DNA of 64,000 bases from an uncultured Candidatus Saccharibacteria bacterium (GCA_964600295.1 CAZRIY010000001.1:169733-233732); one strand, 5' to 3'; positions 240 to 45,532 are shown, counted from the stretch's first letter. Notes: generated by a model from the letters alone, not told the origin. Translations and numbers: made by a program.

Positions 240-614
240 CTAAAATAGCCCCGCAATATAGCCCACTATTAGACTGGCTACAATCGCTATAATCAAACCT
301 ATAACGGCGTTGGTAAGAATGCTTTGGGCTTGTTTGGTGCGGTCTGGATTACCGGAGCTGGTGATGTAAGTTATGCCAGCGTAAATTATTAGAATTACCG
401 CCAGTAGCCCGGCCAAAGCCAGAGCCATGCGTGTTACATTTGCCACTACAGTCCAGATCTGAATTAACTCAAAATGTATAATCTGGCAATCAAATTTGTC
501 GCCGACTTTCTCTGCTTGAAAATGGAGACCCTTACCCCAATGCGGAAAACCGAAGAACACATTTTCCGCGCACTCTTTATTGGCATGATCGGCAAACCAG
601 TTCAACCAATTCAT
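240..614 (-). CDS. T4SS pilin-like small membrane protein (VirB2/TrbC-like), paralog 2
   Basis: The C-terminal 62 aa (MALALAGLLAVILIIYAGITYITSSGNPDRTKQAQSILTNAVIGLIIAIVASLIVGYIAGLF) has the same two-helix hairpin plus (I/Y)ITS(A/S)GNP(E/D) motif as the neighbours. The 60-aa N-terminal extension is non-hydrophobic, so the true start may be the internal Met (about 429). It overlaps the upstream paralog by 4 nt. Confidence 0.55.
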   Translation of the reverse strand: MNWLNWFADHANKECAENVFFGFPHWGKGLHFQAEKVGDKFDCQIIHFELIQIWTVVANVTRMALALAGLLAVILIIYAGITYITSSGNPDRTKQAQSILTNAVIGLIIAIVASLIVGYIAGLF

Positions 615-1009
615 AACAACCCGCCGGGGATTAAGAAATTCAGTATGGCCGCCATAAATATGAATAATAGCAGAGCAATTATGGCGTTGGTTAGCATCTT
701 CTTAGCACCAGCAATAGCTTCGGGATTGCCGGCACTTGTGATGTATCTAATGCCACTAATTACAATCATCAGCACAATTACAATTCCAACTCCGGCGGAT
801 AAGAAACGAATGATACCGCCCAACATATCAAAAATGGGATTAACAATGTCTCCGGCGTCCCCCTTGCAACCCACCGGTATGGCAATCTTTACTTTTTTTG
901 CGCCCTTACCGCATTCTTCTGCGAAGACAAGGGAGGGTATAAAAATCAAACCTGATATTAAAATACTAACAGCTGCTGCAAAGATTTTTGGTTTCGTTAG
1001 CTTTAACAT
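611..1009 (-). CDS. T4SS pilin-like protein (VirB2/TrbC-like) with N-terminal signal peptide, paralog 3
   Basis: Signal peptide MLKLTKPKIFAAAVSILISGLIFIPSLVFA. The mature part has two hydrophobic helices flanking RYITSAGNPEAIAGAKK. This architecture is typical of conjugative pilins. Confidence 0.6.
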   Translation of the reverse strand: MLKLTKPKIFAAAVSILISGLIFIPSLVFAEECGKGAKKVKIAIPVGCKGDAGDIVNPIFDMLGGIIRFLSAGVGIVIVLMIVISGIRYITSAGNPEAIAGAKKMLTNAIIALLLFIFMAAILNFLIPGGLL

Positions 1010-1914: not shown

Positions 1915-4566
1915 ATGCGCTCCCTCTTATGGAAAGGCCTGCTTTCGCTTATACTGATTGCGTCATTGTTGCCATCCGGAGTCTGGGCTCAACCGCCGGG
2001 GGTTGCCATCGGAAAATGGATCGACCGTGCCACCATTGAGGTAACTTCAGGCGAATTAGTTGGCGAGAAGTTTTATGACCCCCTTATAGATACGGTATCG
2101 GTTTTCGTTGAGCACCCTTCCTCTGATGCAGATGACTGCACGAGCTTATTCTTTTTTGGCTATCGACGAAACGACTTTGCGGGGGGGGACTGGGAAATCG
2201 CCGAGTCGCCGACATCTAACGAAAGTGATTACAGTACCGGCGCCGCCTACATCGTTATCAACAAACTCAACCAAGCCGGCACGCAGTGTATCTGGCCTGA
2301 AATCACGGCCGACTTAGCCAATGATACTGATAACGCAGAAGCAAAATTAGACGATCTACCTGAAGGTGAGGTTAAACAGCTTATCGGCCTAACTGACCCT
2401 GACAACAGCCGCATATTTTATTACTACGCTAATGAAAAGCATGATGAGTTAATACGAGTCGATGATTTTGACTACTACGTGCAGGTCGATACCAACGCAG
2501 CCGGAAACAAAGTGTTCGAAAAGACTGATGACGCAGACGAATGCTCCGATAGGATCGAGATAACGGGCAGCGGTGGCCCCACTTACGACGATGCGGAGCA
2601 CAGAATAAGAGTACTGGATGCTACATGCAAGGTAGAAAGTTCGGCTGCAATCCGGATAGGAGAAGACGAGGAGCGTTCCAAGAACCCTGTTGTAGGCCCC
2701 CTAACCAAGGATGATCTAGACAGCCGTAAGCAAAAAGGTGGGCCAGCCGGTGCAACGGATGTAGAGTGCGATGCCGGGCCACTGTCCTGGATTGTTTGTA
2801 CAGTTATTGACGCTATTAAAAGTGCGGCCGACTGGTTTTTGAAGGAAGTTATTACACCCTTCCTTAAGGTTAGTCCGCTGCAAGCAGAAAGCGGCAATAC
2901 CGTTTTTGAGAGTTGGAAAGGCATCCGCAACTTGGCCAATATACTGCTGATACCGGTCTTTTTTGTGCTTATTTTTGCCCAAGCCCTGTCCTTAAACATC
3001 GATGCCTATACTATTAAGAAAATGCTGCCAAAGTTGGTGGCGGCAGTCATTCTAATACAATTTTCCTTCTATGCCGTAGCTTTCTTAGTGGATATCTTCA
3101 ACGTACTGGGCAATGGCATTGGAGATTTGCTAACCAGTGCCGTCAAGGGTGAACAGCTAGGCGGCAGTGGGGGTACACAGTTTAAATTTGGGGAAGGTGA
3201 AAGCGTGGCAGCTGGATTAGCTATTACTTTAGGGCTCTTACTTACTGTGCCGTTTGCCATAGCTATTTTTGGATTCTTGCTAATACTAATGCTGGCCTTG
3301 TTGGCGGTGGTAGTCACCCTTATCTTTAGGCAGGTACTAATTGTCTTTCTGGCAATCTTGGCCCCCGTCGCGTTTGTGGCCTGGGTATTACCCAATACCC
3401 AGGGCTTATTTAAGCTTTGGTGGGATAGCCTTCTGAAAGCGCTGGCAATGTACCCATTGATCGTAATGTTGTTTGCGGCCGCCGTCATTGGATCATCTCT
3501 AATTAGCGGCGGGGCCATCAGTGGTCCTAAGACCGGAGCACTCAGGAACAACTTAGAAACCATTGCCGCAATCATACTCCTAATCATTCCCTTCGCTTTA
3601 ATCCCCCTTACTTTTCGGCTCGGCGGTACTGCCATGGCTGGTATAGCTAGTGGCGTCCAAAATTTTCGTGGGCGTCTGCCTGGTGGAGGTGGCGGCGGGC
3701 GGCGTGGCGGAGGGCCAGGCGGACCAGGTGGCCAACCCCGCCCCGGTACTTTTCGAGATCGTATGCAACAATATCGTAGAGCAACAGCGGCTGGCGTAAA
3801 TAGGACTGGACGAATACCTTTAATAGGCGGTGTGGCTAGAGTAATGTCAAGACAGGGTGTAGGCATAGGTAGGGGGGCAAGGACAGGAGCACAAATGGAA
3901 CTACAAAGACAAGTTGGCGAAAACGTTAAAGAAATCGAAAACCTGAGTCATGATCAGCGAAATTTACTAGCTTTTGGATCTCGGGGGGCAGCACTTGCTG
4001 CAATAGATAGGCAGGAAACCGACAGAACTATGGATGCGGCGCAGGCGGCCAGAGCACGACAAAACGTAGATCAAAATTGGGGATCGGTGAGTGCGCTGGC
4101 CAGAAATCCATCTATGCATCTTGCTGCCTTCTCCAAGCTGGCGGAGGACGGGCTGGCTACACATGAACAATTTGCAAGTGTTAGGGATGTCACGCGGGAC
4201 AACCCACAGGTTAGGGGTGCTGTATTAGGAAAAGCGGCTTTCGATATGTACAGTAAGGGCTCTACTAACTTTCTGCGATGGTCTGATGGTGAAGGTGCAG
4301 CTAATGATACAGTGCAAAGCTTCGTTGGCAGGATGGGGGCACAACAGTTTGCTGAGGCGAAGGATCTTGGAGATCCAGTAATACACGGTGTCCTGATTGA
4401 TAGGGCGCGTCAGAACCCAGAGACTGCTAATGCCCTGCGCCATGCCTTAACGCTAACAGCTTCGCCCAATACTCGTGAAGATATAAGATTGATTCTGGAA
4501 TCGGCCGGGCGCTCGACTGAACCCATCGCCACTGCTACTACTCGTGGTACCCCGGACGAAACTTAA
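1915..4566 (+). CDS. VirB6/TrbL-like (ConG-like) polytopic T4SS membrane protein with large N- and C-terminal extramembrane domains
   Basis: 883 aa. Signal peptide, then a ~300-aa extracellular domain, about 7 TM helices (residues ~330-600) and a Gly/Pro-rich linker (GGGGGRRGGGPGGPGGQPRPG, ~3670-3740). A ~270-aa C-terminal domain follows. Size and topology resemble ConG/TcpH-type VirB6 homologs of Gram-positive conjugation systems. Confidence 0.55.
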   Translation: MRSLLWKGLLSLILIASLLPSGVWAQPPGVAIGKWIDRATIEVTSGELVGEKFYDPLIDTVSVFVEHPSSDADDCTSLFFFGYRRNDFAGGDWEIAESPTSNESDYSTGAAYIVINKLNQAGTQCIWPEITADLANDTDNAEAKLDDLPEGEVKQLIGLTDPDNSRIFYYYANEKHDELIRVDDFDYYVQVDTNAAGNKVFEKTDDADECSDRIEITGSGGPTYDDAEHRIRVLDATCKVESSAAIRIGEDEERSKNPVVGPLTKDDLDSRKQKGGPAGATDVECDAGPLSWIVCTVIDAIKSAADWFLKEVITPFLKVSPLQAESGNTVFESWKGIRNLANILLIPVFFVLIFAQALSLNIDAYTIKKMLPKLVAAVILIQFSFYAVAFLVDIFNVLGNGIGDLLTSAVKGEQLGGSGGTQFKFGEGESVAAGLAITLGLLLTVPFAIAIFGFLLILMLALLAVVVTLIFRQVLIVFLAILAPVAFVAWVLPNTQGLFKLWWDSLLKALAMYPLIVMLFAAAVIGSSLISGGAISGPKTGALRNNLETIAAIILLIIPFALIPLTFRLGGTAMAGIASGVQNFRGRLPGGGGGGRRGGGPGGPGGQPRPGTFRDRMQQYRRATAAGVNRTGRIPLIGGVARVMSRQGVGIGRGARTGAQMELQRQVGENVKEIENLSHDQRNLLAFGSRGAALAAIDRQETDRTMDAAQAARARQNVDQNWGSVSALARNPSMHLAAFSKLAEDGLATHEQFASVRDVTRDNPQVRGAVLGKAAFDMYSKGSTNFLRWSDGEGAANDTVQSFVGRMGAQQFAEAKDLGDPVIHGVLIDRARQNPETANALRHALTLTASPNTREDIRLILESAGRSTEPIATATTRGTPDET

Positions 4567-4574
4567 GAAGAAGT

Positions 4575-5417
4575 TTGATGGCTACCTATAAAATTCCCCA
4601 AAACGTCGAAGCCGAAGATAAACTACTTGGCCCTTTTACCTTTAAGCAGTTCATCTTCCTGCTTATGGCGGCTTTTGCGGCGTTGGTAACCTGGTTGCTG
4701 TGGCGGATTAATCCTTGGGTCAGTTCACTGTCTATACCTTTTATACTGCTTTTCGGATTCTTGGGCATCTACCACCGTGAGGACCAACCGGTAGAGGTCT
4801 ACCTAGTAGCAGCGCTAAATTACTTGTTTAAGCCGAGGCGGCGAAAGTGGAGCCAAGAAGGCTTGGTAGAAACTGTCCGCCTGACCGCGCCCAAAGTTAA
4901 GCTAAGGCCCGAACTTAAAAGGCTCAGTTCCGAGCGGGGACAGCTAAAGACCCTGGCTAACATCATGGACACTCGGGGCTGGGCTATTAAGCGGCCGGAA
5001 CTCACCGAACCGCTGGCCAACCAGTATTTTTCGGCTGATGATCGACTGGCTATGCCTGATCTACCTTCATCTGCCACTGAACCGCTGGAGGTGCATGCCT
5101 ATGATGATCCGCTTGACCCACTTCAGTATGGCGACGCCGATAAGTTTTCTGATCTGGCCCAAACCAGCTCCAAGCAGGCCAAAGCCCAGGCCATAGCCAA
5201 AATGGAGGCTGCTATCAATACCAGACAACCCACAGACGCACCAGCGGCAGTGGTCAATAGCACCGACCAAGTAGAGCGGGTAAGATCTGACACTGCCAAA
5301 AACTTAGCTATGAACGATGTTTTACGGGTCAGCGAGATCGCTAAACAGGCCCAAAAAATTCCCAAGGGCGAGCTACCAAAAGGCATAGAGATAGATCTGC
5401 CAAATCCTGGCGAATAG
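4575..5417 (+). CDS. VirB3/PrgI-like T4SS membrane protein with extended C-terminal domain
   Basis: N-terminus PQNVEAEDKLLGPFTFKQFIFLLMAAFAALVTWLLW plus a second TM (LSIPFILLFGFLGIY). This two-TM hairpin is typical of VirB3/PrgI/TcpE proteins that precede VirB4. Confidence 0.45.
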   Translation: MMATYKIPQNVEAEDKLLGPFTFKQFIFLLMAAFAALVTWLLWRINPWVSSLSIPFILLFGFLGIYHREDQPVEVYLVAALNYLFKPRRRKWSQEGLVETVRLTAPKVKLRPELKRLSSERGQLKTLANIMDTRGWAIKRPELTEPLANQYFSADDRLAMPDLPSSATEPLEVHAYDDPLDPLQYGDADKFSDLAQTSSKQAKAQAIAKMEAAINTRQPTDAPAAVVNSTDQVERVRSDTAKNLAMNDVLRVSEIAKQAQKIPKGELPKGIEIDLPNPGE

Positions 5418-5485: not shown

Positions 5486-6403
5486 ATGGCGCTTCAAGAA
5501 AAACAGCCCCAACAGTCTAATCCTGTACCCACTGCGGCCGGTGGACTCCTCCCCGTCCAGCCAACCTCGGTTAATCAAACTAACCCGGCGGTATCCCCGC
5601 CAATTCAGCCCAACCCCGCACCGCAAGCCAGCCCTAGCCTGGCTGAACCAACCAAGCTGCCGAAAGCCAAAAAAACCAAGACCAAAGGGGTTTCGACCCA
5701 AGGCGCCTTGTTGATTTCGGAGATTCGCGACGGCCTGGTGATCATGAAGGATGGCAGCTTGCGAGCGGTAGTAATGTGCCAGTCAATCAATTTTGACCTG
5801 ATGAGTCCGGCCGAACGCGAGGCCGTGGAGTTTACTTACCAAGGTTTTTTGAACGCACTTTATTTCCCGATTCAAATCTTCATCCGCTCCCAGCGGGTGG
5901 ACCTCAACAGCTACATTGACAAGCTGGAAGCAATTCATACCGGTCAAGAGAACATTCTACTATCGCTGTTGATGGAGGATTACATTGCCTATGTACGCTA
6001 CTTAGTGGAGGCTGCTAATGTTATGGACAAGCAGTTTTATGTGGTAGTACCCTACTATCCGCCGCTGACCTTACAGAAAGGGGGAATTTCCACGGGTATC
6101 CACCGGTTTACTTCCTTCTTGCGCCCCAAAACCGGCCCGATTGTGATCAACCAGGCTGATTACGCCCGTTTCAAAGCCGAGCTGACCCAGCGGGTACAGG
6201 CGGTTTTATCGGGATTGAATCAAATGGGTACCCAGGCCGTGCCCCTAAATACTCAGGAACTGATCGAGCTTTACTACACAGTCTATAATCCCCAGACGGC
6301 ACTGAGTCAACGCTTGACCGATGTTGATGATTTGGAAGCACAGATGGTGGAAAAAGGTCAGGGGCAGGCACCGCCGGTTTTGCACGGAGATAGTCAACTA
6401 TGA
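5486..6403 (+). CDS. VirB4/TrbE-family T4SS ATPase, N-terminal segment (ends at the in-frame TGA 6401..6403)
   Basis: After a Pro-rich low-complexity N-terminus comes DGLVIMKDGSLRAVVMCQSINFDLMSPAEREAVEFTYQGFLNALYFPIQIFIRSQRVD, resembling the CagE/TrbE/VirB4 N-terminal domain. It is in the same frame as the next ORF, separated only by TGA. Confidence 0.6.
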   Translation: MALQEKQPQQSNPVPTAAGGLLPVQPTSVNQTNPAVSPPIQPNPAPQASPSLAEPTKLPKAKKTKTKGVSTQGALLISEIRDGLVIMKDGSLRAVVMCQSINFDLMSPAEREAVEFTYQGFLNALYFPIQIFIRSQRVDLNSYIDKLEAIHTGQENILLSLLMEDYIAYVRYLVEAANVMDKQFYVVVPYYPPLTLQKGGISTGIHRFTSFLRPKTGPIVINQADYARFKAELTQRVQAVLSGLNQMGTQAVPLNTQELIELYYTVYNPQTALSQRLTDVDDLEAQMVEKGQGQAPPVLHGDSQL

Positions 6404-6406
6404 GGG

Positions 6407-8422
6407 GTGGGGATGGCCTTACTGGGTAGATTCAAGAAGACCGCTGAAGTCGGGCTGGCCGAGCAACAGCGGCTGCGCGAAGCCGCCCAGGTTGAGCAAG
6501 AGTTTCGCGAAGGCATCACAACCTTGCGCGATTTTATCGCGCCTTCCTCGATTGAATTCAATTCCGATTACTTCCGCTTGGGAAACCGCTACGCTGCCAC
6601 TTTCTATGTCTACGGCTACCCTCGGCAGCTTTATACTGGCTGGTTATCTCCGATTATCAACGTTGATGAAACTATCGACCTGAGCATTTTCATTTACCCG
6701 GTAGAAAGCCGAGTGGTGCTAGAGAATTTGCGCAAAAAAGTTGGCCAGATGGAAGCCAGCATTTCCATCCTCCAAGAAAAAGGCCGGGTACGCGATCCTG
6801 GGCTAGATGCTTCAATTACCGATGCCGAGGAGCTGCGCGATAAACTCCAAGTTGGGGAAGAGCGCTTCTTTCGCTTTGGACTTTACCTAACGTTATATGC
6901 CGATACTCGCGAAGAGCTTCAAGCCGCCCAGCGCAAAATTGAGGGGATCTTTGGTCAAGAACTTGTCTATACCAAGATTGCCACCTTGCAGCTAGAACAA
7001 GGTTTTAACTCGACCGTGCCCCAAGGTATGGACCAGCTAGAAATCCGCCGCAATTTCAGTACGGGGGCGTTATCCACTAGCTTTCCTTTCACTTCGGCCG
7101 ACCTATCCCAAGAGAACGGCATTCTTTATGGCATCAACATGCACAACAATGGCTTGGTGATTTTCGATCGCTTTAGTTTGGAAAACGCCAACATGGTGGT
7201 GTTTGCCAAATCGGGTGCTGGTAAATCTTTTACGGTTAAGCTTGAGGCTTTGCGCTCACTAATGATGGGCACCCAAGTTATCGTCATAGATCCGGAGAAC
7301 GAATATCAGCGACTGTGCGAAGCTGTCGGGGGCAGCTATGTTCGGCTGAGCCTAAACTCCAAAACCTACATCAACCCCTTTGAACTGCCCCATGTACTGG
7401 ACGAGGAAGAAGCTGATAACGCCTTGCGGGCCAACTTAATTACCCTACACGGTTTATTGCGGTTGATGCTGGGGGCCCAGCAAGCCGGCGCCGCCTCCCA
7501 AATTTACGTTGGCCTTACACCCGAGGAAGAAGCTGATCTAGATCTGGCTTTAATCAATACTTACGGCCAAAAGGGCATTACCAATGATGCTTTGACGCAT
7601 GGTGCCACGCCACCGACCATCAAGGATCTTTACGAAACCCTGGTTAGCATGGAGGGCAATGGTCCTTCCCTGGCCCAACGGCTACGCAAGTTTACTACCG
7701 GCACTTTTTCTGGCATTTTTTCCAACCAATCCAGCGTTAGCTTAGACAATAACTTTATTGTTTTTAATATCCGCGATTTGGAAGAAGAACTGCGGCCGGT
7801 GGCTATGTACATTATTCTCAACCACGTTTGGAACCGAGTGAAGAGCGAAATGCGCCGACGTTACCTGATTGTCGATGAAGGCTGGCAGTTGATGCGTTAT
7901 GAGGATTCAGCCAACTTTTTGTTCTCAGTGGCCAAGCGAGCCCGCAAGTACGAACTGGGGTTAACCACAATTTCTCAGGACGTAGAAGATTTTCTGTCCT
8001 CGCGGATGGGACGGGCGATTGTGGCCAATTCCAGCTTGCAGATGTTGCTCAAGCAAGCGCCCTCGGCCGTCGATTTGGTGGCAGACACCTTTAAGTTAAC
8101 CAGCGAGGAAAAAAAGCGGCTATCCCAATTTCCGGTTGGACAGGGTCTATTTTTTGCCGGCTCCAACCATATCCATATGCGGATTGACGCCTCGCCCACT
8201 GAGACCCAGCTGATTACTACTGATCCCAAACAGTTGCGGGTGCTTCAAGCCATGGCCGAAAGTGGCAACACTGCTGCCGCTGCCACCTCATTGACTACTG
8301 AGCCCGTCGACCAAGAATCATCGACCGAGCCATCACGGGTTACCCCACCCGCATCATCGCAAATTGCGTCCCCGGGATCAGCTACTGATAAATTAATGCC
8401 CACCCAAACCCCAGAGGTTTAG
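6407..8422 (+). CDS. VirB4/TrbE-family T4SS ATPase, C-terminal segment containing the ATPase domain
   Basis: Walker A VVFAKSGAGKSFTVK; Walker B RRRYLIVDEGWQLM; motifs YGYPRQLYTGWLSPII and LTTISQDVEDF are typical of VirB4. The track start GTG 6407 is in frame with the upstream ORF. ATG 6413 has a GAGGGGTGGGG Shine-Dalgarno-like run 7 nt upstream. Confidence 0.8.
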   Translation: MGMALLGRFKKTAEVGLAEQQRLREAAQVEQEFREGITTLRDFIAPSSIEFNSDYFRLGNRYAATFYVYGYPRQLYTGWLSPIINVDETIDLSIFIYPVESRVVLENLRKKVGQMEASISILQEKGRVRDPGLDASITDAEELRDKLQVGEERFFRFGLYLTLYADTREELQAAQRKIEGIFGQELVYTKIATLQLEQGFNSTVPQGMDQLEIRRNFSTGALSTSFPFTSADLSQENGILYGINMHNNGLVIFDRFSLENANMVVFAKSGAGKSFTVKLEALRSLMMGTQVIVIDPENEYQRLCEAVGGSYVRLSLNSKTYINPFELPHVLDEEEADNALRANLITLHGLLRLMLGAQQAGAASQIYVGLTPEEEADLDLALINTYGQKGITNDALTHGATPPTIKDLYETLVSMEGNGPSLAQRLRKFTTGTFSGIFSNQSSVSLDNNFIVFNIRDLEEELRPVAMYIILNHVWNRVKSEMRRRYLIVDEGWQLMRYEDSANFLFSVAKRARKYELGLTTISQDVEDFLSSRMGRAIVANSSLQMLLKQAPSAVDLVADTFKLTSEEKKRLSQFPVGQGLFFAGSNHIHMRIDASPTETQLITTDPKQLRVLQAMAESGNTAAAATSLTTEPVDQESSTEPSRVTPPASSQIASPGSATDKLMPTQTPEV

Positions 8423-8437
8423 CCTCCCAGCATCAAA

Positions 8438-11400
8438 ATGGCCAAAGCCACTCCCGAAGAGCAAACCGAAAAAGACCAGTTAGACCGCACTTATAGGGAG
8501 TCGTTGAGCCAAGAAGATGTCGAGAGTGGGGTCAAACAAGCTGAATCTCACGCCAACCAGAGTTTTTATAACAATGGAGGCCAACCAAAAGGCTCCCAGC
8601 CATTTGGTTGGGTTGGCCGCCATCGCAAAAAACTTGTCACTGGTGGGATATTGGGAGTGCTAACTGGTGGTGGCCTGATTGGGCTTTTTTCATTTCTGGC
8701 TCCCTTAAAATTGGATTTCTTGGGCAAGAATATCGAGCAGACTCAACTGGACCGTCTCGAGTACACCGTAAATGGTCGTAGCCAGCGTTTTATGTACCAC
8801 CTGATGATGGCGGAAATAGCCGGCAATAATGGGGGCGATCCTAGTAACAATCGTTACTTCCGCGCTAAGGGCTGGTATCTAAGCGGCAATCCCCTGACTC
8901 AGTGGTATAAGGATATCCGCACCGACAAGTTTTTTAATGTGATGGAGCAGAAATACGGAGTCATCTTCGCTGCCGAAAGTGGAAATGCTCGCGGCCACCT
9001 GCGCGCCATCACCACTATTGATATGCCAGAATCCAAGGTCGATAGCCTCAGGCAATTATTTAAAGATATTGATACACCGAATGGCATAGATGTTGCCAAA
9101 CTGAACGAATTTGAGGGTGCTGTAGTTAATGAATTTGATAATGACCGTGATGCACGCCGAATGATCAGAAGTTTTATCAAGGATGACTCCCATGCCTGGC
9201 AGGTTCTCAAGCGGCGGCATTTGCGGCGATGGGCAGGAGAGCGACTGGGCATCCGTCGTTGGCGTTTCTTCGAGGGCACCCGCGATAAAACCGGTAAATC
9301 AGTTCGCACGACTTGGAGTAAGCTCACCGGTAACACCATGACTGGCAAAATCATCGGCTGTATTTTTTCGTTCGCTCTTTGTCCGGTTGATTCCAATGAC
9401 CTAAACGATAATGACAACAAGGTTGAAAATGGTAACGACCCAAATACCCAGCGATCGGTAGACGATACAGAAACCGATATCGACGACGGACAAGAGCGTG
9501 CCAAAGGACAGCTTGGCAAAGCCGATGAACGCTCGAGGATTCAAAAGTTAATTTCTAGAAAACTGATAATTCTAAGGGGTGTGAATATCCTCGACTGGCT
9601 GAGAACTTTCATAGCTATTGATGATAATATTTCTAGTCGTAAATTGACCAAAATGGTAGCCATTTCTCGAGCCGCAGAATACGCAACGGCCTACATGACT
9701 TTCGTGACGTTAACAGATCATCTCAAGGAAGGCGAAACCGTCACTGGCGAAGAAGTAAATGCAGCTATGCAGATGTTTCAATGTAGCGAATTTAGCGAGG
9801 CATATCAGCATATGATGGCCAAGCAAAATAGTGGTTCTAAAACGGCCAATATCGGTGCAGTGTATGCCCAGCAGAAGCAGCGCACCACCAAAGAATGCCC
9901 CTACTATGAAGAGGTAACTGACGAGCTTAAAGTTAACGGCCATGGTAGCAACGCCGCTAAAATTGAGAAATGGTACAACGATACCATCGGTCCGGTTATT
10001 GGTGAGATCGTGGATGCTGTTCGTTTTCTTGTGGAAAATCCGGTAAGCGCGGCCATCTTAAGCGTACTCGACTCCATATTCAACTTCTTACTACAGGGAT
10101 TGTTGGTAATCGTTAACTTTATATGGGACGAATCTGAGGAAGCTATCAAGAAACTGCTCAACAAGCTGGGCGAGGAAGTTATCTCTGGGCTGGGTGGGGC
10201 ACCACAATGCACCGCCAATGAATCGGGCGGCCGTAAGGTCGGCTGCGCTATTGGCGGCGCAGCAGTTACCCAAGAACAGTATCTGGCCTCCATTGGCGGC
10301 ATGAACCTGACCGATGATCAAGTTAATGAAGTGAAGCAAAAGGTAGCCTTTGCCAAGCAGCAAGATAGAGCCGCTACCAGCTGGTGGCATAGGCTGGCTT
10401 CAACCGAAGATCCCAATTCCCTGCTGGCCAGAACCGCAATGCGCTTGCCCAGCAATACTTCCCAGCTAGCCAGCGAATTTAGCAATCTGGCTAGCAGCTT
10501 CACCCCAACCAGCCGACTAACCGCCTCGGGCCAAGCACTAGCTGCTACAATCAGCGATTCGGCGTTAGCGGTGCCAGACCCGGATGAAAATCTTTTCGGC
10601 GTCGAATATAAAGGCTTTCTCAATAAAACCATCGAGAAGTCGCTACCCTATGACGGTAAAGCTAAAGACAAAGCAGGCGAACAGGCGCTGCTGGACGCCA
10701 TTGCTGATGGCCGCATTAAGGCAGAGCCACCTGCCGGTAATTGTGAAGATGAAATGGCTGCCCACACCGCACAATTGGTAGGTGATGACGACATTAAGAC
10801 CGATGATGATGGGCCAACCATGATGAGTGTATGTAAACTTGATACGGCTATTAGTGAAGCCATGAAATCATTCTTTACCGAGGAAGATGATGGTGGCATT
10901 GGAACTTCAACAAGCATTGATGGCTCTGGAGAGACGGGTGTAAATGGACTCGAGTGCCCAGATAAATTACAGGAAAACCCAACCCATCCGGGCTACTATA
11001 AAATGCCCGAAGCGCCAAGTGGTGAGTACGTTATTTACTCTGTTGATGCCCGTAGATATGGAAGCAAAGAGTTAGTTTGCTCAATTTATACGGTAGCTCT
11101 GGCCTATAAGGATAAATACGGTAATAAATCAACTGTTAACGTCGGTGACCTTAACGGCGGATATCCGCACGCCAGCCACTATAAAGGCATTGCCGTTGAT
11201 ATAGATGCGCACGGCCAAATCTGTGCGGCTGACCATACCCATCCTACGCCAGGTGATGGATCGGGACTTTGCGGACCATATAACGCAGAAGCCACCGTCG
11301 ACCTTGGCAAAATGTGGATAGACACCGGTATTTTGCAGGATATATGGTGGTGCGAGAAACCAGGAGACGGATCAACCGAAGCCATTCGCATATATGGCGA

Positions 11401-11506
11401 ACAAAAGGGAAAACCGGTAAATATTAAGTGCCTGTCGGGCCATGATAACCATTTCCACGTTAATATCCAGGAGAAGTATGCCTTGCCTGGTTCATGGACA
11501 CCTTAG
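8438..11506 (+). CDS. Large membrane-anchored T4SS-associated protein with C-terminal LAS-family (peptidase M15/VanY-like) zinc-peptidase signature
   Basis: 1022 aa with one N-terminal TM (LVTGGILGVLTGGGLIGLFSFLAPL). An acidic low-complexity segment (DSNDLNDNDNKVENGNDPNTQRSVDDTETDIDDGQERAKG) sits at ~9380-9500, and a hydrophobic segment at ~residue 530. The C-terminal YPHASHYKGIAVDIDAHG (~11161..11215) matches the SxHxxGxAxD motif, and GHDNHFHV (~11438..11461) is a His-cluster. Confidence 0.5.
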   Translation: MAKATPEEQTEKDQLDRTYRESLSQEDVESGVKQAESHANQSFYNNGGQPKGSQPFGWVGRHRKKLVTGGILGVLTGGGLIGLFSFLAPLKLDFLGKNIEQTQLDRLEYTVNGRSQRFMYHLMMAEIAGNNGGDPSNNRYFRAKGWYLSGNPLTQWYKDIRTDKFFNVMEQKYGVIFAAESGNARGHLRAITTIDMPESKVDSLRQLFKDIDTPNGIDVAKLNEFEGAVVNEFDNDRDARRMIRSFIKDDSHAWQVLKRRHLRRWAGERLGIRRWRFFEGTRDKTGKSVRTTWSKLTGNTMTGKIIGCIFSFALCPVDSNDLNDNDNKVENGNDPNTQRSVDDTETDIDDGQERAKGQLGKADERSRIQKLISRKLIILRGVNILDWLRTFIAIDDNISSRKLTKMVAISRAAEYATAYMTFVTLTDHLKEGETVTGEEVNAAMQMFQCSEFSEAYQHMMAKQNSGSKTANIGAVYAQQKQRTTKECPYYEEVTDELKVNGHGSNAAKIEKWYNDTIGPVIGEIVDAVRFLVENPVSAAILSVLDSIFNFLLQGLLVIVNFIWDESEEAIKKLLNKLGEEVISGLGGAPQCTANESGGRKVGCAIGGAAVTQEQYLASIGGMNLTDDQVNEVKQKVAFAKQQDRAATSWWHRLASTEDPNSLLARTAMRLPSNTSQLASEFSNLASSFTPTSRLTASGQALAATISDSALAVPDPDENLFGVEYKGFLNKTIEKSLPYDGKAKDKAGEQALLDAIADGRIKAEPPAGNCEDEMAAHTAQLVGDDDIKTDDDGPTMMSVCKLDTAISEAMKSFFTEEDDGGIGTSTSIDGSGETGVNGLECPDKLQENPTHPGYYKMPEAPSGEYVIYSVDARRYGSKELVCSIYTVALAYKDKYGNKSTVNVGDLNGGYPHASHYKGIAVDIDAHGQICAADHTHPTPGDGSGLCGPYNAEATVDLGKMWIDTGILQDIWWCEKPGDGSTEAIRIYGEQKGKPVNIKCLSGHDNHFHVNIQEKYALPGSWTP

Positions 11507-11507
11507 G

Positions 11508-12719
11508 ATGAATTCCAAGACACTCGTGCAGCTAGGTCTCATGACCCTATTGTTGGGCTTACCCATGAAGTTGTTGGCAATCAGTTCCCCGGATCGTCAC
11601 TCGGTTATTTACGACACTGTTTATTACGATCCCACAGACGTTAGCCAAGAATGCAGTGGCGGCACGGACCAGCTATCCGAAGATACCGTTCCCCAACCTT
11701 ACAATGATTTGTTTGAAGAGGCAGCCGCTAAGTTTAAAACCGACGTGGCCTTGTTGGCTGCCATTTTTTGGGTAGAACACCACGGCATAGGGGCAAAATG
11801 GGACCCCAAGAGTTGGCCCGATCATAAGGGGCCTTGGGCTTCGTCGACCGTTGGAGCTTCTGGACCATTTCAATTCATGCCAGATACGTGGGGTTACCCA
11901 CCGGATTATACGCCCGGTTATGCCATTGATGGTGATAAGGATGGCGATAGAGAAATCCAGGACCTTACAGATTCAGCCTATAGTGCCGCAAACTATCTTT
12001 CCGCAAATGGCGGAAAAGTTGGCGCCGAGGTAGGCAACCCTGATCTTGATGTCCCCCAAAAACCTTCATTTAGCAACGCCATTTGGCATTACAATCATGA
12101 TCCTGCCTACGTCAAAACTGTTCTTGAAGCGCGTGAAGGAATTCTAAAGGGCGGAGGCGCGTCCGCGAGCGGTAGTAGCGGAACCTGTGCCACCGGCAAC
12201 TGGATTTGGCCGATCGCTAAGAAGGACTATCTGGGACTTTCAACCTGCTGGAATACATCCCGCATTCTCAATGGCAATAAGTACCACCACGGCGGCCTTG
12301 ATATATCGGCGGGCCGCGGTGTTGATGCTTTAGCGGCTGATGGGGGTACTATTGAAGAAGTGAATCTAGATGCGAGCAATGGCAACGGTATATATGTGGT
12401 GATAAAACATGGAGGTAAGTTCTGGTCGGTTTACAAACATTTGCTCGAAGCTAAGGTTAAGAAAGGGGATCAAGTTAACCAGGGTGATGTAATTGGTGCT
12501 GTTGATAGTACTGGCACCAGTACGGGCGATCACCTTCATTTCAATATCCAAGATCGAGGTGGAGTATCGGGCTCGGTAGAGGACGGAGGCACTCTGAACC
12601 CCTTAGACTACTTGCCCGAGGATGGACGCAACCTTGAAACTGGAAATCCCGACCTTGGTAAATGTATACCGGGCGACAAGGGTCAAACTGGTAATGGCAT
12701 TCAGGTAATTAATACATAG
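11508..12719 (+). CDS. CwlT-like bifunctional cell-wall hydrolase: lytic transglycosylase (SLT) + M23 (LytM) peptidase, secreted
   Basis: Signal peptide MNSKTLVQLGLMTLLLGLPMKLLA; start chosen at ATG 11508, 1 nt after the upstream stop (ORF track 11442 would overlap). SLT motifs AAIFWVEHHG, GASGPFQFMPDTWG and YSAANYLS. M23 motifs HHGGLDISAG and GDHLHFNIQ. Confidence 0.8.
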   Translation: MNSKTLVQLGLMTLLLGLPMKLLAISSPDRHSVIYDTVYYDPTDVSQECSGGTDQLSEDTVPQPYNDLFEEAAAKFKTDVALLAAIFWVEHHGIGAKWDPKSWPDHKGPWASSTVGASGPFQFMPDTWGYPPDYTPGYAIDGDKDGDREIQDLTDSAYSAANYLSANGGKVGAEVGNPDLDVPQKPSFSNAIWHYNHDPAYVKTVLEAREGILKGGGASASGSSGTCATGNWIWPIAKKDYLGLSTCWNTSRILNGNKYHHGGLDISAGRGVDALAADGGTIEEVNLDASNGNGIYVVIKHGGKFWSVYKHLLEAKVKKGDQVNQGDVIGAVDSTGTSTGDHLHFNIQDRGGVSGSVEDGGTLNPLDYLPEDGRNLETGNPDLGKCIPGDKGQTGNGIQVINT

Positions 12720-12727
12720 GAATATAG

Positions 12728-14152
12728 ATGCAAACAAGAACCAAGTTATTTTTACTAGCCATGTCAGCCTTGATACTTCTAATTGTTGGCTGGCAGTTGT
12801 TATCCACGGGTAAGGTCGAGGTCACCACTTCTCCTGGCGTCAGCAGTTCCTTTTCGATTCGGGATGAAACCGGTAAGACTATAGAAACAAAAAAAGGTAA
12901 AAGAATTGCTGAACGTTTGCGGCCTGGTGAGTACTCGGTAACAGCAGAGCACGACAAAGGCGCCACCAAACAATCGTTCACTATCAAGGCTCGCGATACC
13001 CTCAGTTTGGTCCTGAAGCTGGAGGAATTAAAAACGCCGGTTCTAATAACTGATCGGCCAGCAGTGGATATCCAGCTGGGAAGTGGACTGTTGTTTGTTG
13101 ATCCCACACTTGATAGGCTATTTCAACTCAAAGAAGGTAGCACCATACCCCAACCCCTCTTCGACACCGTGGACGCTCAGCGCATCGAATGGCTGGGCCA
13201 AGACAGCGGTTTGATCCAAACCACCGAGCGCAATGGCTACTATTTTGATGGCTCAATGATTCGTGACATTGGGCTGGTATCCGTTGAAGAAGAGGATCAA
13301 GTGATAATTAACGCCGTAAGTGCTGACCCGGGCTCGCGAAGCTTTGTTTACAGCTCTGCCAAAGAACTATTTATTAGCCGCAATCTTGCACCGCGCCAGC
13401 ATCTGCTTACCGTTGATAAGGAAAAACCATCATTGGCGTTAAAGGGTGGTAACTTGGCATTTTTCTACTACCCTGAAGGCTTCCCCGAATACACTACGCC
13501 AGAACCAGCCTTTGTATTTGATCTGACTAGCAGCACCAAGACTGAGATTGTTTCAGATCAATTAATATTTGATATTCATTGGTCGGCCAGCGGGGATAAA
13601 TTGATTTATGACACCCCAGAAAATCTATATATATACGACTATCAAGCCAGGCGCGTAATAAACCGCATTTCAAAAAATCTAAATGTTGCCGTTCCGGTTC
13701 TGTGGCTTAATGACGCGGACTTTTTGTATGGCGACGAGGGTGGAATTTGGCGTTTCGAATTAAATAGTTCGCAGGCTATCAAACTAGCAAATGCCAGTGG
13801 TGCGAATGAGGGGTTTGATATTGCCAGACGATTAGATTCAGACGAAATTTTCTTTAGTAATGGTGATTCCGCGAGTCCGGGTATTTATAAATTACTACTC
13901 GCCGGAGATATCCCTGAAAATACGAGGATCCTAGCTAAAATCCTCCCCTCCAGTACCGTGCAGTTTGAAATTAAGTATTCGGCCCTTGCCGAACCAGCTA
14001 CTGTACTAATCCAGACCTTTGTGGATCGGCGGCCTGGCACTACCCCGGCCGAATATCTGGCCAAGGCCGCAGAATACAAAAAGGCGGCCCTGGATTTTCT
14101 TCAGAGCCACGGCGTAGACACCTCAAAGATTAGAATCCATTATCTGGAATAG
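12728..14152 (+). CDS. Secreted/anchored hypothetical protein, possibly beta-propeller (TolB-like)
   Basis: 474 aa with N-terminal TM/signal (LFLLAMSALILLIVGWQLL). Last gene of the plus-strand T4SS block. No catalytic motif recognised. Confidence 0.4.
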   Translation: MQTRTKLFLLAMSALILLIVGWQLLSTGKVEVTTSPGVSSSFSIRDETGKTIETKKGKRIAERLRPGEYSVTAEHDKGATKQSFTIKARDTLSLVLKLEELKTPVLITDRPAVDIQLGSGLLFVDPTLDRLFQLKEGSTIPQPLFDTVDAQRIEWLGQDSGLIQTTERNGYYFDGSMIRDIGLVSVEEEDQVIINAVSADPGSRSFVYSSAKELFISRNLAPRQHLLTVDKEKPSLALKGGNLAFFYYPEGFPEYTTPEPAFVFDLTSSTKTEIVSDQLIFDIHWSASGDKLIYDTPENLYIYDYQARRVINRISKNLNVAVPVLWLNDADFLYGDEGGIWRFELNSSQAIKLANASGANEGFDIARRLDSDEIFFSNGDSASPGIYKLLLAGDIPENTRILAKILPSSTVQFEIKYSALAEPATVLIQTFVDRRPGTTPAEYLAKAAEYKKAALDFLQSHGVDTSKIRIHYLE

Positions 14153-14595: not shown

Positions 14596-15645
14596 CTAGA
14601 GTTTGATCAATTGGTGCGGCTTTGGGAGTTGCTTGGTTAACCCCCGCTGATCGGTAGTGGTAATAATGGTTTGGACTTTATCCAATTTAGCCAACAGGCG
14701 CAGCCGGCGGGTCTGATCCAGCTCGCTGAAGACATCGTCCAGCAGCAACATCGGCTGCTTGTCCGTGTGCCGTTTTAACCATTGCAATTGGGCCAGTTTA
14801 AGGGCCAGCACCAGTGTGCGCACTTCGCCGCGGCTGGCCACCACAGCCGCCGGCTTATGACCTAGCGCCACCGCCACTTCATCGCGGTGGGGACCCAAGC
14901 TGGTAGCGCCAAAACGGATATCTCGTTGCAATTTTTGGTTTAGACCTTTGAGTAGTTGCTCGCTATATTCACCCTCCCCCAGACCGGTCTGGTAGGTAAG
15001 ATGCAGGGCTGGCTTGGCACCGGCCAGCTGCCGGTAAAGGCTGGGCAGGCGGCGGTTAACGTAGGCGATAAACTTAGCACGTAAATCCACTAGCTGGGCG
15101 GCTAGCTCTACCAAGGTGACGTCCCAGGCAAATACCTGGTCTTCAATGGCCGCTCGCTGTTTTTGGCGCAACAAGTGGTTGCGCTGATTGACCACGCGGC
15201 GGTAAGCCAGCAAATTTTGCCAGTACTGGGGGTGGCTCTGGATCAAGGTTTGGTTGAGCCAGCGCCGCCGCTCTTCCGGGGCGCCGTTGATAATTTTTAG
15301 GCTGTCGGGCTCAAACAACACCACCGGCAAGCTGCCTAGATAGGCTTCGGGCTTGATGTTGGTTTGGTTAACTTTTAGCCGTTTGCGACCACCAGTCGGA
15401 TAAACCAGCTCAATTGTGGTTTTGGCGGCGGCGCCCTCTAGTCGGTACCAATCGGCCGTGTGCCGGACCAGGTCGCGGTCCCGCGCCCGCCAGGACTTGG
15501 TAGTGGCCAAAACATAAAGCGATTCCAATAGATTGGTTTTGCCGGCGCCGTTGGCTCCTACCACTAGCGTGACACCAGGCGAAAAGGTAAAGACTTGTTG
15601 GCTATAAGAGCGAAAGTTGGCCAGTTTCAGGCTATCAATCGGCAT
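14596..15645 (-). CDS. recF: DNA replication and repair protein RecF
   Basis: N-terminus MPIDSLKLANFRSYSQQVFTFSPGVTLVVGANGAGKTNLLESL (Walker A) and the C-terminal ABC/SMC signature region. Position downstream of dnaN. Confidence 0.9.
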   Translation of the reverse strand: MPIDSLKLANFRSYSQQVFTFSPGVTLVVGANGAGKTNLLESLYVLATTKSWRARDRDLVRHTADWYRLEGAAAKTTIELVYPTGGRKRLKVNQTNIKPEAYLGSLPVVLFEPDSLKIINGAPEERRRWLNQTLIQSHPQYWQNLLAYRRVVNQRNHLLRQKQRAAIEDQVFAWDVTLVELAAQLVDLRAKFIAYVNRRLPSLYRQLAGAKPALHLTYQTGLGEGEYSEQLLKGLNQKLQRDIRFGATSLGPHRDEVAVALGHKPAAVVASRGEVRTLVLALKLAQLQWLKRHTDKQPMLLLDDVFSELDQTRRLRLLAKLDKVQTIITTTDQRGLTKQLPKPHQLIKL

Positions 15646-15662: not shown

Positions 15663-16766
15663 CTAGGAGCGCAGGGGCATAATGATGTGGAGATAGCTTT
15701 TGTCTTCGGTGGGACGTATGACTACTGGGTTAACTTTGCCGGATACAGCTAGTTTGATTTGGGGAGAATTAATCACACTGAGGGCGTCTCCCAAATAACG
15801 GTAATTCAGGGCTACTTGGGCGTCATCGCCGTTAATTTCAGCTTTGGTGTCGGAGACATTCTCGCCTACCTGAGAGGCTACCGAGCGCAGCCGTAAACTG
15901 GAGCTTTGGTTATCTACCTCAAGGGTAATGCTGCCGCCGCCGGTTTGGGCAAACAGCCCGGCCACTTTGGTTAGGTTGCCGAGTTCCGCCGTATCGACGG
16001 TGACGACCGTGGGAGAATCTTTGGGAATCAGGCTGCGGTAATCGGGAAACTGGCCGTCGATTAGCCGCGATATTAGCTCGATATTATCCAGTTTAAACAA
16101 GGCTTGGTTTTCTTCCACCACCACTTCCAGGGTTTCGCTGTCATCACCAATCATCCGCAACAGTTCTTGGATGGTGCGAGCCGGAACTATTAGGTTTATC
16201 TGGCCGGTCTGGCCTTTTTGGCGGGGAATGATTTTTTCTGCCAGGCGGTAGCTATCGGTAGCCACTATGACCAGGTTTGAACCCTCAGAGTATAGGTAAA
16301 CACCGCCCAACACCGGACGGGTGTCGTCGGTTGAGGCGGCCAGTACCACCACGCTAGCCGCGGCTTTAAAATCTTGGGCTGGCAAACTAAACAGGGCCGA
16401 TTTTTTGAGACTGGGAATTGAGGGAAATTCAGCGGCTTCAATGCCGTTAAAGGTCGATTGGTAGTGGTTGGTGGTAACTTTGAGGTTGGTTTTATCTAGT
16501 TCCAGGCTGACGGTATCGTCTGGCAGGTTACCAACAAACTCGGCTAGTAGTCTAGCCGGTACCGTGATGGCCCCAGCTTGATCAACTTTAGCCCCAATCC
16601 AATAATTAATACCGAGTTCAAGATTGGTGGTCGATAGTTTTAGACGCTTACCATCAGTAGCCACTAGAACGTGGGCCAATACCGGCAGTGTGGCCTGTGA
16701 TCCCACAATTCTACCTACCGCGCCCAGGGCTTTAGCCAAGTTGTCTTTGGTTGCGCTAACCTTCAT
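15663..16766 (-). CDS. dnaN: DNA polymerase III beta sliding clamp
   Basis: 367 aa; MKVSATKDNLAKALGAVGRIVGSQATLPVLAHVLV is a typical DnaN N-terminus. Located between dnaA and recF. Confidence 0.9.
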   Translation of the reverse strand: MKVSATKDNLAKALGAVGRIVGSQATLPVLAHVLVATDGKRLKLSTTNLELGINYWIGAKVDQAGAITVPARLLAEFVGNLPDDTVSLELDKTNLKVTTNHYQSTFNGIEAAEFPSIPSLKKSALFSLPAQDFKAAASVVVLAASTDDTRPVLGGVYLYSEGSNLVIVATDSYRLAEKIIPRQKGQTGQINLIVPARTIQELLRMIGDDSETLEVVVEENQALFKLDNIELISRLIDGQFPDYRSLIPKDSPTVVTVDTAELGNLTKVAGLFAQTGGGSITLEVDNQSSSLRLRSVASQVGENVSDTKAEINGDDAQVALNYRYLGDALSVINSPQIKLAVSGKVNPVVIRPTEDKSYLHIIMPLRS

Positions 16767-18339: not shown

Positions 18340-18402
18340 TACTATACTAGCCGCTGGGACAGCTTTCCACAACCCGGCTGCCGAAAGCCCCAACAAGCGC
18401 AA

Positions 18403-45457: not shown

Positions 45458-45532
45458 TCCGGAGTAGCTCAATGGTAGAGCACCGCCCTGTTAAGGCGAT
45501 GGTTGCCGGTTCGAGTCCGGCCTCCGGAGCCA
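45458..45532 (+). tRNA. tRNA-Asn (anticodon GTT)
   Basis: 75-nt cloverleaf: acceptor TCCGGAG/CTCCGGA, D-arm GCTCAATGGTAGAGC, anticodon loop CTGTTAA, T-arm GCCGGTTCGAGTCCGGC and encoded CCA. Confidence 0.85.

Follow-up and report, generated by a model that had tools for sequence, protein, structure and literature searches.

A virB4-linked membrane protein of a Saccharimonadales bacterium combines a conserved helical body with a predicted MepA-type peptidase head and belongs to a large family with exchangeable heads

Southlakia epibionticum's type IV secretion system (T4SS) is encoded by SEML1_0006-0019 (Wang et al. 2023, PMC10633639). According to the supplementary tables of that study, SEML1_0008 is the VirB4-like ATPase, and the gene directly downstream of it, SEML1_0007 (3342 nt, 1113 aa), is annotated as 'hypothetical protein', with residues 951-1105 assigned to an ECOD Hedgehog/DD-peptidase domain and with M15B- and M23-domain proteins as its closest neighbours in structure (PMC10633639). 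The transposon sequencing (Tn-seq) calls for SEML1_0007, GD/ES/ES, denote a gene essential for epibiotic growth, and SEML1_0006, coding for a lysozyme/lysozyme/Cys-peptidase protein, is likewise essential (PMC10633639). That a LAS-fold peptidase is encoded after virB4 in Saccharibacteria has been noted before, in this table and one sentence only, and a 2024 perspective called the role of the Saccharibacterial T4SS 'completely unknown' (PMC11665869). In the literature, we found nothing on the N-terminal 950 residues of SEML1_0007 and, with regard to the Saccharibacterial T4SS in general, no description of these N-terminal 800-950 aa or of a variability of the C-terminal enzyme domain, hereafter called the head. 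Here, we analysed a stretch of 64,000 nt (the window) from an uncultured Candidatus Saccharibacteria bacterium (GCA_964600295.1, CAZRIY010000001.1:169733-233732), a member of the Saccharimonadales (Patescibacteria), in which an open reading frame (ORF) next to virB4 encodes a 1022-aa protein. This protein consists of a single predicted transmembrane (TM) anchor, a large conserved helical body and a C-terminal domain with a predicted LAS fold, closest to the zinc peptidase MepA, and its body defines a large family, the members of which carry exchangeable heads.

The window gene resembles SEML1_0007 of S. epibionticum ML1 in its place directly after virB4 and close to oriC, in its size (~1100 aa) and in its C-terminal LAS domain, and the gene that follows codes likewise for a multi-domain wall hydrolase, of the lysozyme/Cys-peptidase type in S. 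epibionticum. The two proteins appear to differ in their heads, that of SEML1_0007 being, to judge by its structural neighbours, probably of the VanY/M15B and not of the M74 type. P0167, a protein of the same length (1113 aa), could not be identified as SEML1_0007 and lies in an M23-bearing JGI cluster. The VirB1-like hydrolases PrgK of pCF10, TraG of pIP501 and CwlT of ICEBs1 are encoded in T4SS operons, as is the window gene, which lies between virB4 and a gene for an SLT+M23 protein. In common with the window protein, they have an N-terminal membrane anchor, one or several extracytoplasmic hydrolase domains and a modular build, as well as a presumed role in local opening of the wall such as we propose below (PMC12102498). 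The core of these three proteins is a lytic transglycosylase or a muramidase, accompanied by CHAP, NlpC/P60 or LytM, whereas Pfam matched no SLT or lysozyme-like domain in the window ORF (SLT is found in the next gene, 11478-12719) and the LAS peptidase of the window protein stands behind a ~730-750-aa non-catalytic ectodomain without counterpart in PrgK, TraG and CwlT. Escherichia coli MepA (MEROPS M74; 1U10/1TZP) has the LAS fold and the extended motifs GHxSHxxGxxVD and HxxHxH in common with the window domain, but the template modelling score (TM-score) is only ~0.57 and the window domain contains a 13-residue Cys/Gly-rich insertion (local model confidence, pLDDT, <50 at domain residues 102-105). 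Moreover, MepA is a free periplasmic enzyme, whereas the window domain belongs to a monoderm and forms the C-terminal module of a membrane protein of 1022 aa.

The ORF starts with ATG and runs from 8438 to 11506 on the plus strand, with the length and the location inside a T4SS cluster that the original prediction, made from the DNA alone, had given. Since M1, P6, E7 and E8 are invariant among the closest homologues, the start codon is validated by homology. The parts of the protein are listed below; the TM call is based on Kyte-Doolittle hydropathy (19-residue window, threshold 1.6) and the structural models were made with AlphaFold2 (AF2).

8438..8632, plus strand: residues 1-65, predicted cytoplasmic disordered tail, ending in RHRKK (pLDDT 40-51)
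8633..8707, plus strand: residues 66-90, sole predicted TM anchor, N-terminus in and C-terminus out (Kyte-Doolittle hydropathy >1.6)
8708..9382, plus strand: residues 91-315, R/W/F-rich juxtamembrane region with the strongest family conservation (helical, pLDDT 55-92)
9383..9562, plus strand: residues 316-375, acidic D/N-rich low-complexity linker (11 D and 7 N in 60 aa, pLDDT ~50)
9563..10891, plus strand: residues 376-818, second region of the conserved body, all helical in the AF2 model
10040-10126, plus strand: residues ~535-563, hydrophobic helix (hydropathy and AF2 model)
10892..10945, plus strand: residues 819-836, flexible G/S/T-rich linker (pLDDT <50 over 820-836)
10946..11503, plus strand: residues 837-1022, predicted zinc peptidase domain with LAS fold (M74/MepA type)
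11168..11200, plus strand: motif 1, H911-A-S-H914-Y-K-G-I-A-V-D921, with the predicted zinc ligands H914 and D921
11441..11458, plus strand: motif 2, H1002-D-N-H1005-F-H1007, with H1007 as predicted third zinc ligand and H1005 as predicted catalytic histidine

The tail is read as cytoplasmic because its basic end, RHRKK, precedes the TM helix, in agreement with the positive-inside rule, and the helix at residues 66-90 has hydropathy at TM level in 100% of 72 homologues. This topology would place the peptidase outside the membrane, and a pair of cysteines, C308 and C315, invariant in an alignment of 73 sequences, is consistent with an extracytoplasmic location. Of the three features that the original prediction saw in the N-terminal region, the single TM helix and the acidic D/N-rich linker, which varies in length in homologue alignments, were confirmed; the internal hydrophobic segment is present at residues 535-563 and is not a conserved TM helix. 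We rejected this segment as a second TM helix, as only 26% of the homologues (73 sequences) have TM-level hydropathy there and as the peptidase would then end up in the cytoplasm.

The evidence for the peptidase lies in two motifs and in the predicted fold. The segment YPHASHYKGIAVDIDAHG covers residues 909-926 (nt 11162-11215) and GHDNHFHV covers residues 1001-1008 (nt 11438-11461), and the LAS signature, H-x(3-6)-D plus a downstream H-x-H, is present in them as H914-x6-D921 and H1005-x-H1007. From H914 to H1005 there are 91 residues, matching the ~90 that had been read from the DNA. An 'exact' SxHxxGxAxD had also been claimed, of which the HxxGxAxD core is exact and the complete motif is absent: the regular expression S.H..G.A.D finds no match in the window protein, in which Ser913 directly adjoins His914 (A-S-H-Y-K-G-I-A-V-D) and is therefore off by one residue. 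The full arrangement, H-x-S-H-x-x-G-x-x-V-D, is the version of MepA (M74), GHASHQTGLDVD. With the last 186 aa and then a small alignment of them as query, word-indexed searches gave 15 homologues, and in the alignment of all 16 sequences (35-57% identity) H911, S913, H914, G917, D921 and H1007 are invariant, including all three predicted ligands of the H/D/H set, while H1002 and H1005 are kept in at least 90%.

The AF2 model of residues 837-1022 made with this alignment reached a pLDDT of 92.3 and a predicted TM-score (pTM) of 0.90. In a Foldseek search of the PDB, the top five matches were MepA chains (1U10/1TZP; E=1.4e-5 to 3.3e-5, probability 1.00, TMq ~0.58), Hedgehog N-domains (5 chains) came next, and nothing beyond these two groups was found at about E<=0.002. 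A profile of the 16 sequences, searched against PDB sequences, also had MepA as best match (E=0.022) with both motifs aligned, GHxSHxxGxxVD pairing with GHASHQTGLDVD and HDNHFH with HRAHMH; second best was the phage Ply500 L-Ala-D-Glu peptidase, and a profile of four sequences gave only chance matches to FGFR kinases (E ~0.06). With the signal peptide of MepA, which we take to be 19 residues long, added for numbering, H914/D921/H1007 match the MepA zinc ligands H113/D120/H211, and H911/H1002/H1005 match H110/H206/H209. A precomputed PF03411 (Peptidase_M74) match exists for 9 of the 15 homologues, P0002 scoring above the Pfam gathering threshold (26.8 vs 25 bits), and VanY (PF02557) has no match in the window protein in Pfam even at E<=1. 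Because MepA and then the Hedgehog N-domains are the best solved structural matches, the modelled domain is assigned the LAS fold, an alpha/beta sandwich (MEROPS clan MD) that MepA, VanX, DD-carboxypeptidase and the Hedgehog N-domain have in common, with M74/MepA and not VanY as its closest subfamily. Accordingly, the proposed LAS/M15 (VanY-like) peptidase stands with respect to the fold, which structure prediction recovered, and to the motif residues, which the homologues keep, and had to be corrected with respect to the subfamily.

The region in front of this domain, described in the original prediction as ~850 unrecognisable residues and perhaps a novel scaffold, remained without a match in Pfam, NCBIfam and PHROGs as well as among PDB sequences and among the structures of the PDB and of viruses. 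Pfam left the body unmatched in the window protein and in 138 family members, NCBIfam and PHROGs gave no match to the whole protein, and neither did a whole-protein phmmer search of PDB sequences. The AF2 model of the N-terminal 836 residues, based on 73 sequences, is all-alpha (pLDDT 72, pTM 0.77) with blocks above 90 and values of up to 96 at residues 590-680. Foldseek found no significant neighbour of this model in the PDB (best E=3.2), and the best match among the viral structures of BFVD had E=0.3 at a TM-score <0.1; the names 'tape measure' and 'minor tail' among the BFVD matches were rejected as evidence, as the proteins concerned are just long and helical. Since tblastn against plasmid and phage records gave no match, neither catalogued conjugative plasmids nor catalogued phages have the family among their components.

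A profile built from an N-terminal alignment of five sequences was searched exhaustively with HMMER and retrieved 912 cluster representatives (E<=1e-3), of which 480 reached E<=1e-10 and 181 reached E<=1e-30. Among the 150 best members, lengths range from 181 to 1605 aa, mostly from 750 to 1600, and the matches nearly always span the N-terminal ~700-800 residues; the labels of relatives in GTDB genomes include Candidatus Saccharimonadales bacterium. In the 73-sequence alignment, R263, W275, C308, C315 and G607 are invariant, with the cysteines as a C308-x6-C315 pair, and D427, G432, G607, G620, S661 and D802 are conserved within residues 376-818, while residues 91-315 hold the motifs NRYFxAKGW, TQWYxDxRT and ERLGIxxWRFFE. 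The N-terminal region is a real, widespread conserved family, for which 'novel scaffold' is a reasonable description. The third-best member in the profile search, P0021 (HVE80892.1), bears the NCBI label 'Candidatus Dormibacteraeota bacterium' and comes from an 8.9-kb contig, probably a mis-binned contig of Saccharimonadia and not a true occurrence outside the Patescibacteria.

The five closest full-length homologues have the body in common and diverge abruptly past residue ~820. The linker at residues 819-836 is the point at which homologues switch to unrelated C-terminal modules and at which the alignment of the body breaks down. In a Pfam census of 138 family representatives, the heads were VanY in 24, Peptidase_M23 in 15, Lipase_GDSL_2 in 10, Exo_endo_phos in 4 and Peptidase_M74 in 3 cases, followed by GDPD, Peptidase_M14 and CHAP (2 each) and by NlpC/P60, Peptidase_C39_2, Amidase_3 and SLT_2 (1 each). 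The census was used instead of single-linkage clustering of the last 230 residues, which was uninformative as short-tailed members contribute part of the body. The true share of LAS heads is higher than the census indicates, as several of them, including that of the window protein, miss the Pfam thresholds; a regular expression for the LAS motif matched 42 of 153 family sequences. All close homologues examined end in a LAS-type H...D...HxH module of one of at least three sequence types, in some cases with a beta-lactamase/S11-like or GDSL module ahead of it, and a LAS-type peptidase is terminal in 10/11 syntenic loci.

Two observations bear on how the heads change. The identity between P0003 and P0004 amounts to 87.4% over 794 N-terminal residues, and their tails of 169 and 406 aa have different architectures and only 27% identity over ~100 residues; such similar bodies with unlike tails are direct evidence of module replacement. 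At locus L008, the family protein (875 aa, 6800-9427) stops right after the body without any enzyme head, and a VanY (LAS) domain is found instead in the product of the adjacent gene (9430-10698). The LAS module thus seems to move between the family gene and the next gene.

The genes around the ORF, as matched with Pfam and NCBIfam, are the following.

240..1009, minus strand: two VirB2-like genes of a pilin array, at 240-614 and 611-1009 (NCBIfam Mbov_0395 pilin-like at 5.6e-7 and 1.1e-5, in each case below cutoff)
1915-4566, plus strand: VirB6/TrbL-like protein of 883 aa (Pfam TrbL, weak)
4575-5417, plus strand: PrgI/VirB3-like protein (Pfam PrgI, 6.5e-13)
5486-6403, plus strand: TrsD/TraC-like protein (NCBIfam TrsD, 3e-6; PF26593 TraC-like)
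6407..8422, plus strand: VirB4-like T4SS ATPase (Pfam P-loop_TraG, 2.5e-25, AAA_10 and DUF87), 16-nt gap to the ORF
11478..12719, plus strand: CwlT/VirB1-like wall hydrolase with SLT and M23 (Pfam Peptidase_M23, 2.4e-22; SLT_2, 3e-9)
12728..14152, plus strand: protein of 474 aa, last cluster gene before recF (no Pfam, NCBIfam or PHROGs match)
14596-15645, minus strand: recF (Pfam SMC_N)
15663-16766, minus strand: dnaN (Pfam DNA_pol3_beta, three matches)
16993-18402, minus strand: dnaA (Pfam Bac_DnaA)

The 3' end of the ORF overlaps the SLT+M23 gene by 29 nt, and the recF-dnaN-dnaA origin region is convergent with the T4SS operon. The notion that the cluster encodes separate wall-cutting activities, two according to the original prediction, holds in extended form, as there are three predicted catalytic domains: the M74-like LAS domain, SLT and M23. 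The cluster is the oriC-proximal chromosomal T4SS known from Patescibacteria (PMC12102498).

Nine independent loci, L002-L010, taken from genomes as well as metagenomes, were compared with the window. The gene for VirB4 lies directly upstream of the family gene in 9/9 of them, and the order PrgI-TrsD-VirB4-[family gene]-hydrolase is kept wherever the upstream flank is reached. Downstream come recF and then dnaN in each of the 8 loci with sufficient sequence on this side, and dnaA in the 6 loci long enough to include it. The next gene codes for a multi-domain wall hydrolase in every locus, with a different domain set in almost each: SLT+M23, Amidase_2, GDSL+Amidase_2, CHAP, Phage_lysozyme2+VanY, Phage_lysozyme2+beta-lactamase2+NlpC/P60 or Phage_lysozyme2+Transglycosylas+Amidase_3. 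Its coordinates are 11478-12719 in the window, 12970-14709 in L002, 13309-15915 in L005, 9598-10809 in L007, 9430-10698 in L008, 10283-12166 in L009, 6540-9764 in L010 and 3843-5633 in L013. At a place similar to that of the 474-aa protein, a gene for ~400-500 aa is found third after virB4 in L002-L004 and L009 and second in L007 and L008; these counterparts are too diverged from the window protein for phmmer at E<1e-4. The homologues of the window pilin genes in L002 belong to PF18895 T4SS_pilin.

With regard to the other T4SS genes, L002 (1700-4090 and 4178-6382) and L003 (1415-3931 and 4001-6205) have two VirB6-like genes in tandem, each of which matches the window's one VirB6-like protein (883 aa); S. 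epibionticum likewise has two large genes there, SEML1_0011 and SEML1_0013 (PMC10633639). Over residues 88-187, the TrsD/TraC-like protein showed a weak PHROG match (E=2e-4) to the large subunit of a terminase; it also had weak NCBIfam matches to VirB4-type ATPases, which fits the reported remote homology to the N-terminus of VirB4 (PMC12102498). One tRNA (45458-45529) is the sole Rfam family above its gathering score in the window.

The components of the cluster evolve at very different rates, as judged by the protein identity between the window and six other loci. Identities to the window were 70-71% for VirB4, 49-58% for TrsD, 45-53% for DnaN, 38-47% for RecF, 31-40% for PrgI and 26-34% for the family body. 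The body is the fastest-evolving large component, and the ATPase of the cluster is more conserved than the replication clamp. VirB4 is under stronger constraint than DnaN, which fits the reported essentiality of the T4SS.

The M74-like peptidase also occurs by itself. The stand-alone homologues P0011, P0015, P0018 and P0019 are ~240-255 aa long and have signal peptides, and those with usable context (4/4) sit in another Patescibacterial T4SS cluster, two genes past virB4. The gene order there is PrgI-TraC-like-VirB4-[CLIPPER-domain protein]-[189 aa]-[M74-like]-[~200 aa]-dnaN-dnaA; at L011 (2997-6397), and alike at L014, L015 and L016, the protein after virB4 is a TM protein of ~470 aa with a CLIPPER-domain match. 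In a profile hidden Markov model (HMM) search, the N-terminal body had no homologue in the L011-type cluster, and as the ~470-aa and ~189-aa proteins gave no HMM match, we rejected the idea that the body had been split into these two. As the stand-alone homologues, too, lie in T4SS clusters, the M74-like peptidase is a recurrent component of such clusters, which in Saccharimonadales is fused to the large body. This M74-like subfamily appears to be found only in Patescibacterial T4SS clusters and to be undescribed in the literature.

The present analysis shows the predicted anatomy and fold of the protein, the conservation of the ligands, the fixed linkage to virB4 and the exchangeability of the heads. 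We consider it fairly likely that the protein is a membrane-anchored accessory subunit of the T4SS, the distal MepA-type endopeptidase of which would cut peptidoglycan cross-links locally, in concert with SLT and M23 in the product of the next gene, and let the T4SS or its pilus pass the wall. According to this model, the cytoplasmic tail and the TM helix at residues 66-90 would anchor the protein in the membrane of the epibiont, and the lineage-specific all-alpha ectodomain of ~730-750 residues would project outward and bear, behind a flexible linker, the predicted zinc peptidase. Zn2+ would be held by H914, D921 and H1007, with H1005 completing the putative active site and H911 and H1002 nearby. 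By homology to MepA, the domain would hydrolyse the peptide cross-links of peptidoglycan as an endopeptidase, SLT would cut the glycan and M23 the peptides, and a local gap would open in the wall, so that the T4SS channel or pilus could then be assembled and reach the host. We infer catalysis, association with the machine and the target wall, be it the epibiont's own or that of the host.

Several points weigh against this model. The N-terminal 800 aa have no detectable relative among known T4SS components (Pfam, NCBIfam, PDB, plasmids), and therefore the label of a T4SS subunit derives from gene position only. SEML1_0007 is the counterpart of the window gene by position and published annotation and a putative homologue. 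The identity of the head to MepA is just 17-18%, and the Pfam Peptidase_M74 (PF03411) match, with E=0.008 and 16.2 bits, lies below the 25-bit gathering threshold and covers residues 854-922 only. Finally, the lipase/esterase, GDPD and Exo_endo_phos heads of other family members go beyond what remodelling of the own wall needs and fit an effector as well.

The alternative that survives best is a polymorphic, contact-dependent effector against the host, in which the body would be a delivery or presentation module and not a part of the machine, and the exchangeable C-terminal 'warhead' would act on the host envelope. It would attack while tethered or after cleavage of the linker, free nutrients or open the host wall, and be matched to the chemistry of that wall. 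The layout of polymorphic toxins, a conserved N-terminal module with unrelated exchangeable C-terminal enzymes, is found in the family, and the wide variety of heads over the 138 representatives, with esterases and phosphodiesterases among them, the recent exchange of heads between P0003 and P0004 and a repertoire similar to that of envelope-targeting effectors of antibacterial T4SS and type VI secretion systems (T6SS) speak in favour of such an effector. So does the fast evolution of the body (26-34% identity compared to 70% for VirB4 and 45-53% for DnaN), as is usual for surface and host-facing proteins. However, no evident immunity gene directly follows the family gene, the next gene being another hydrolase in every locus; the gene after this hydrolase (L002-L004, L009) codes for an unrecognisable, fast-evolving protein of ~400-500 aa. 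In addition, the conservation of the TM anchor speaks for a protein that stays on the producing cell, the LAS-type end in 10/11 syntenic loci is more constant than typical toxin polymorphism, and no T4SS coupling protein or secretion signal was identified. On balance, we regard an anti-host effector as rather unlikely.

According to a second alternative, the LAS domain would be catalytically dead and serve as a peptidoglycan- or ligand-binding module that anchors the ectodomain to the wall, comparable to the N-domain of the signalling ligand Hedgehog. The Hedgehog N-domains as second group of structural matches and the low Pfam M74 score agree with this, but all positions of the metal ligands and catalytic His/Asp residues of MepA are retained and conserved in the 16-sequence alignment, and family members with other heads bear bona fide enzyme domains at strong E-values, so that we judge a dead domain to be very improbable. 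The weakest alternative, a housekeeping autolysin or cell-division wall hydrolase that lies next to T4SS genes near oriC by chance and has no role in secretion, could invoke the MepA-type housekeeping endopeptidases of E. coli and an origin-proximal position that might just reflect high expression (PMC12102498), yet hardly deserves credence given that the position after virB4 is kept in 9/9 loci despite 26-34% protein identity, that the stand-alone M74-like relatives are in T4SS clusters as well and that the loci examined contain no family member outside a T4SS context.

Going beyond the accessory-subunit model, the body may be a Saccharimonadia-specific extracellular 'lance' of the T4SS that presents exchangeable envelope-degrading warheads at the contact between epibiont and host, a view which we put forward as tentative. 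Among these warheads would be several families of peptidases that act on peptidoglycan, esterases of the GDSL type, phosphodiesterases and hydrolases of the EEP type, and the head, matched to the chemistry of the host wall, would let the T4SS breach a thick Gram-positive wall and help to set the host range. Phage tail-associated lysins and tape-measure proteins, 'evolved' VgrG proteins of T6SS and the X-Tfe effectors of the Xanthomonas T4SS consist of a conserved body and a variable C-terminal envelope-degrading enzyme. The window family may follow the same logic, and the 'lance' could be regarded as a cellular analogue of phage tail lysins; we found no sequence or structural similarity between these proteins and the window family, so the resemblance is one of working mode and not of membership.

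At the level of the family, the large ectodomain, the exchangeable envelope-hydrolase heads and the T4SS-confined M74-like subfamily appear to be new to the literature. The family represents a fast-evolving, modular and surface-exposed part of an otherwise very conserved, essential machine. If it is true that the heads act on the host wall, this part would offer a concrete starting point, testable by genetics, for explaining how ultra-small parasites breach host envelopes and what restricts the range of their hosts. A conservative reading still gives a large uncharacterised family, with at least 912 cluster representatives and a novel all-alpha ectodomain, and an M74-like peptidase subfamily that is so far confined to Patescibacterial T4SS clusters.

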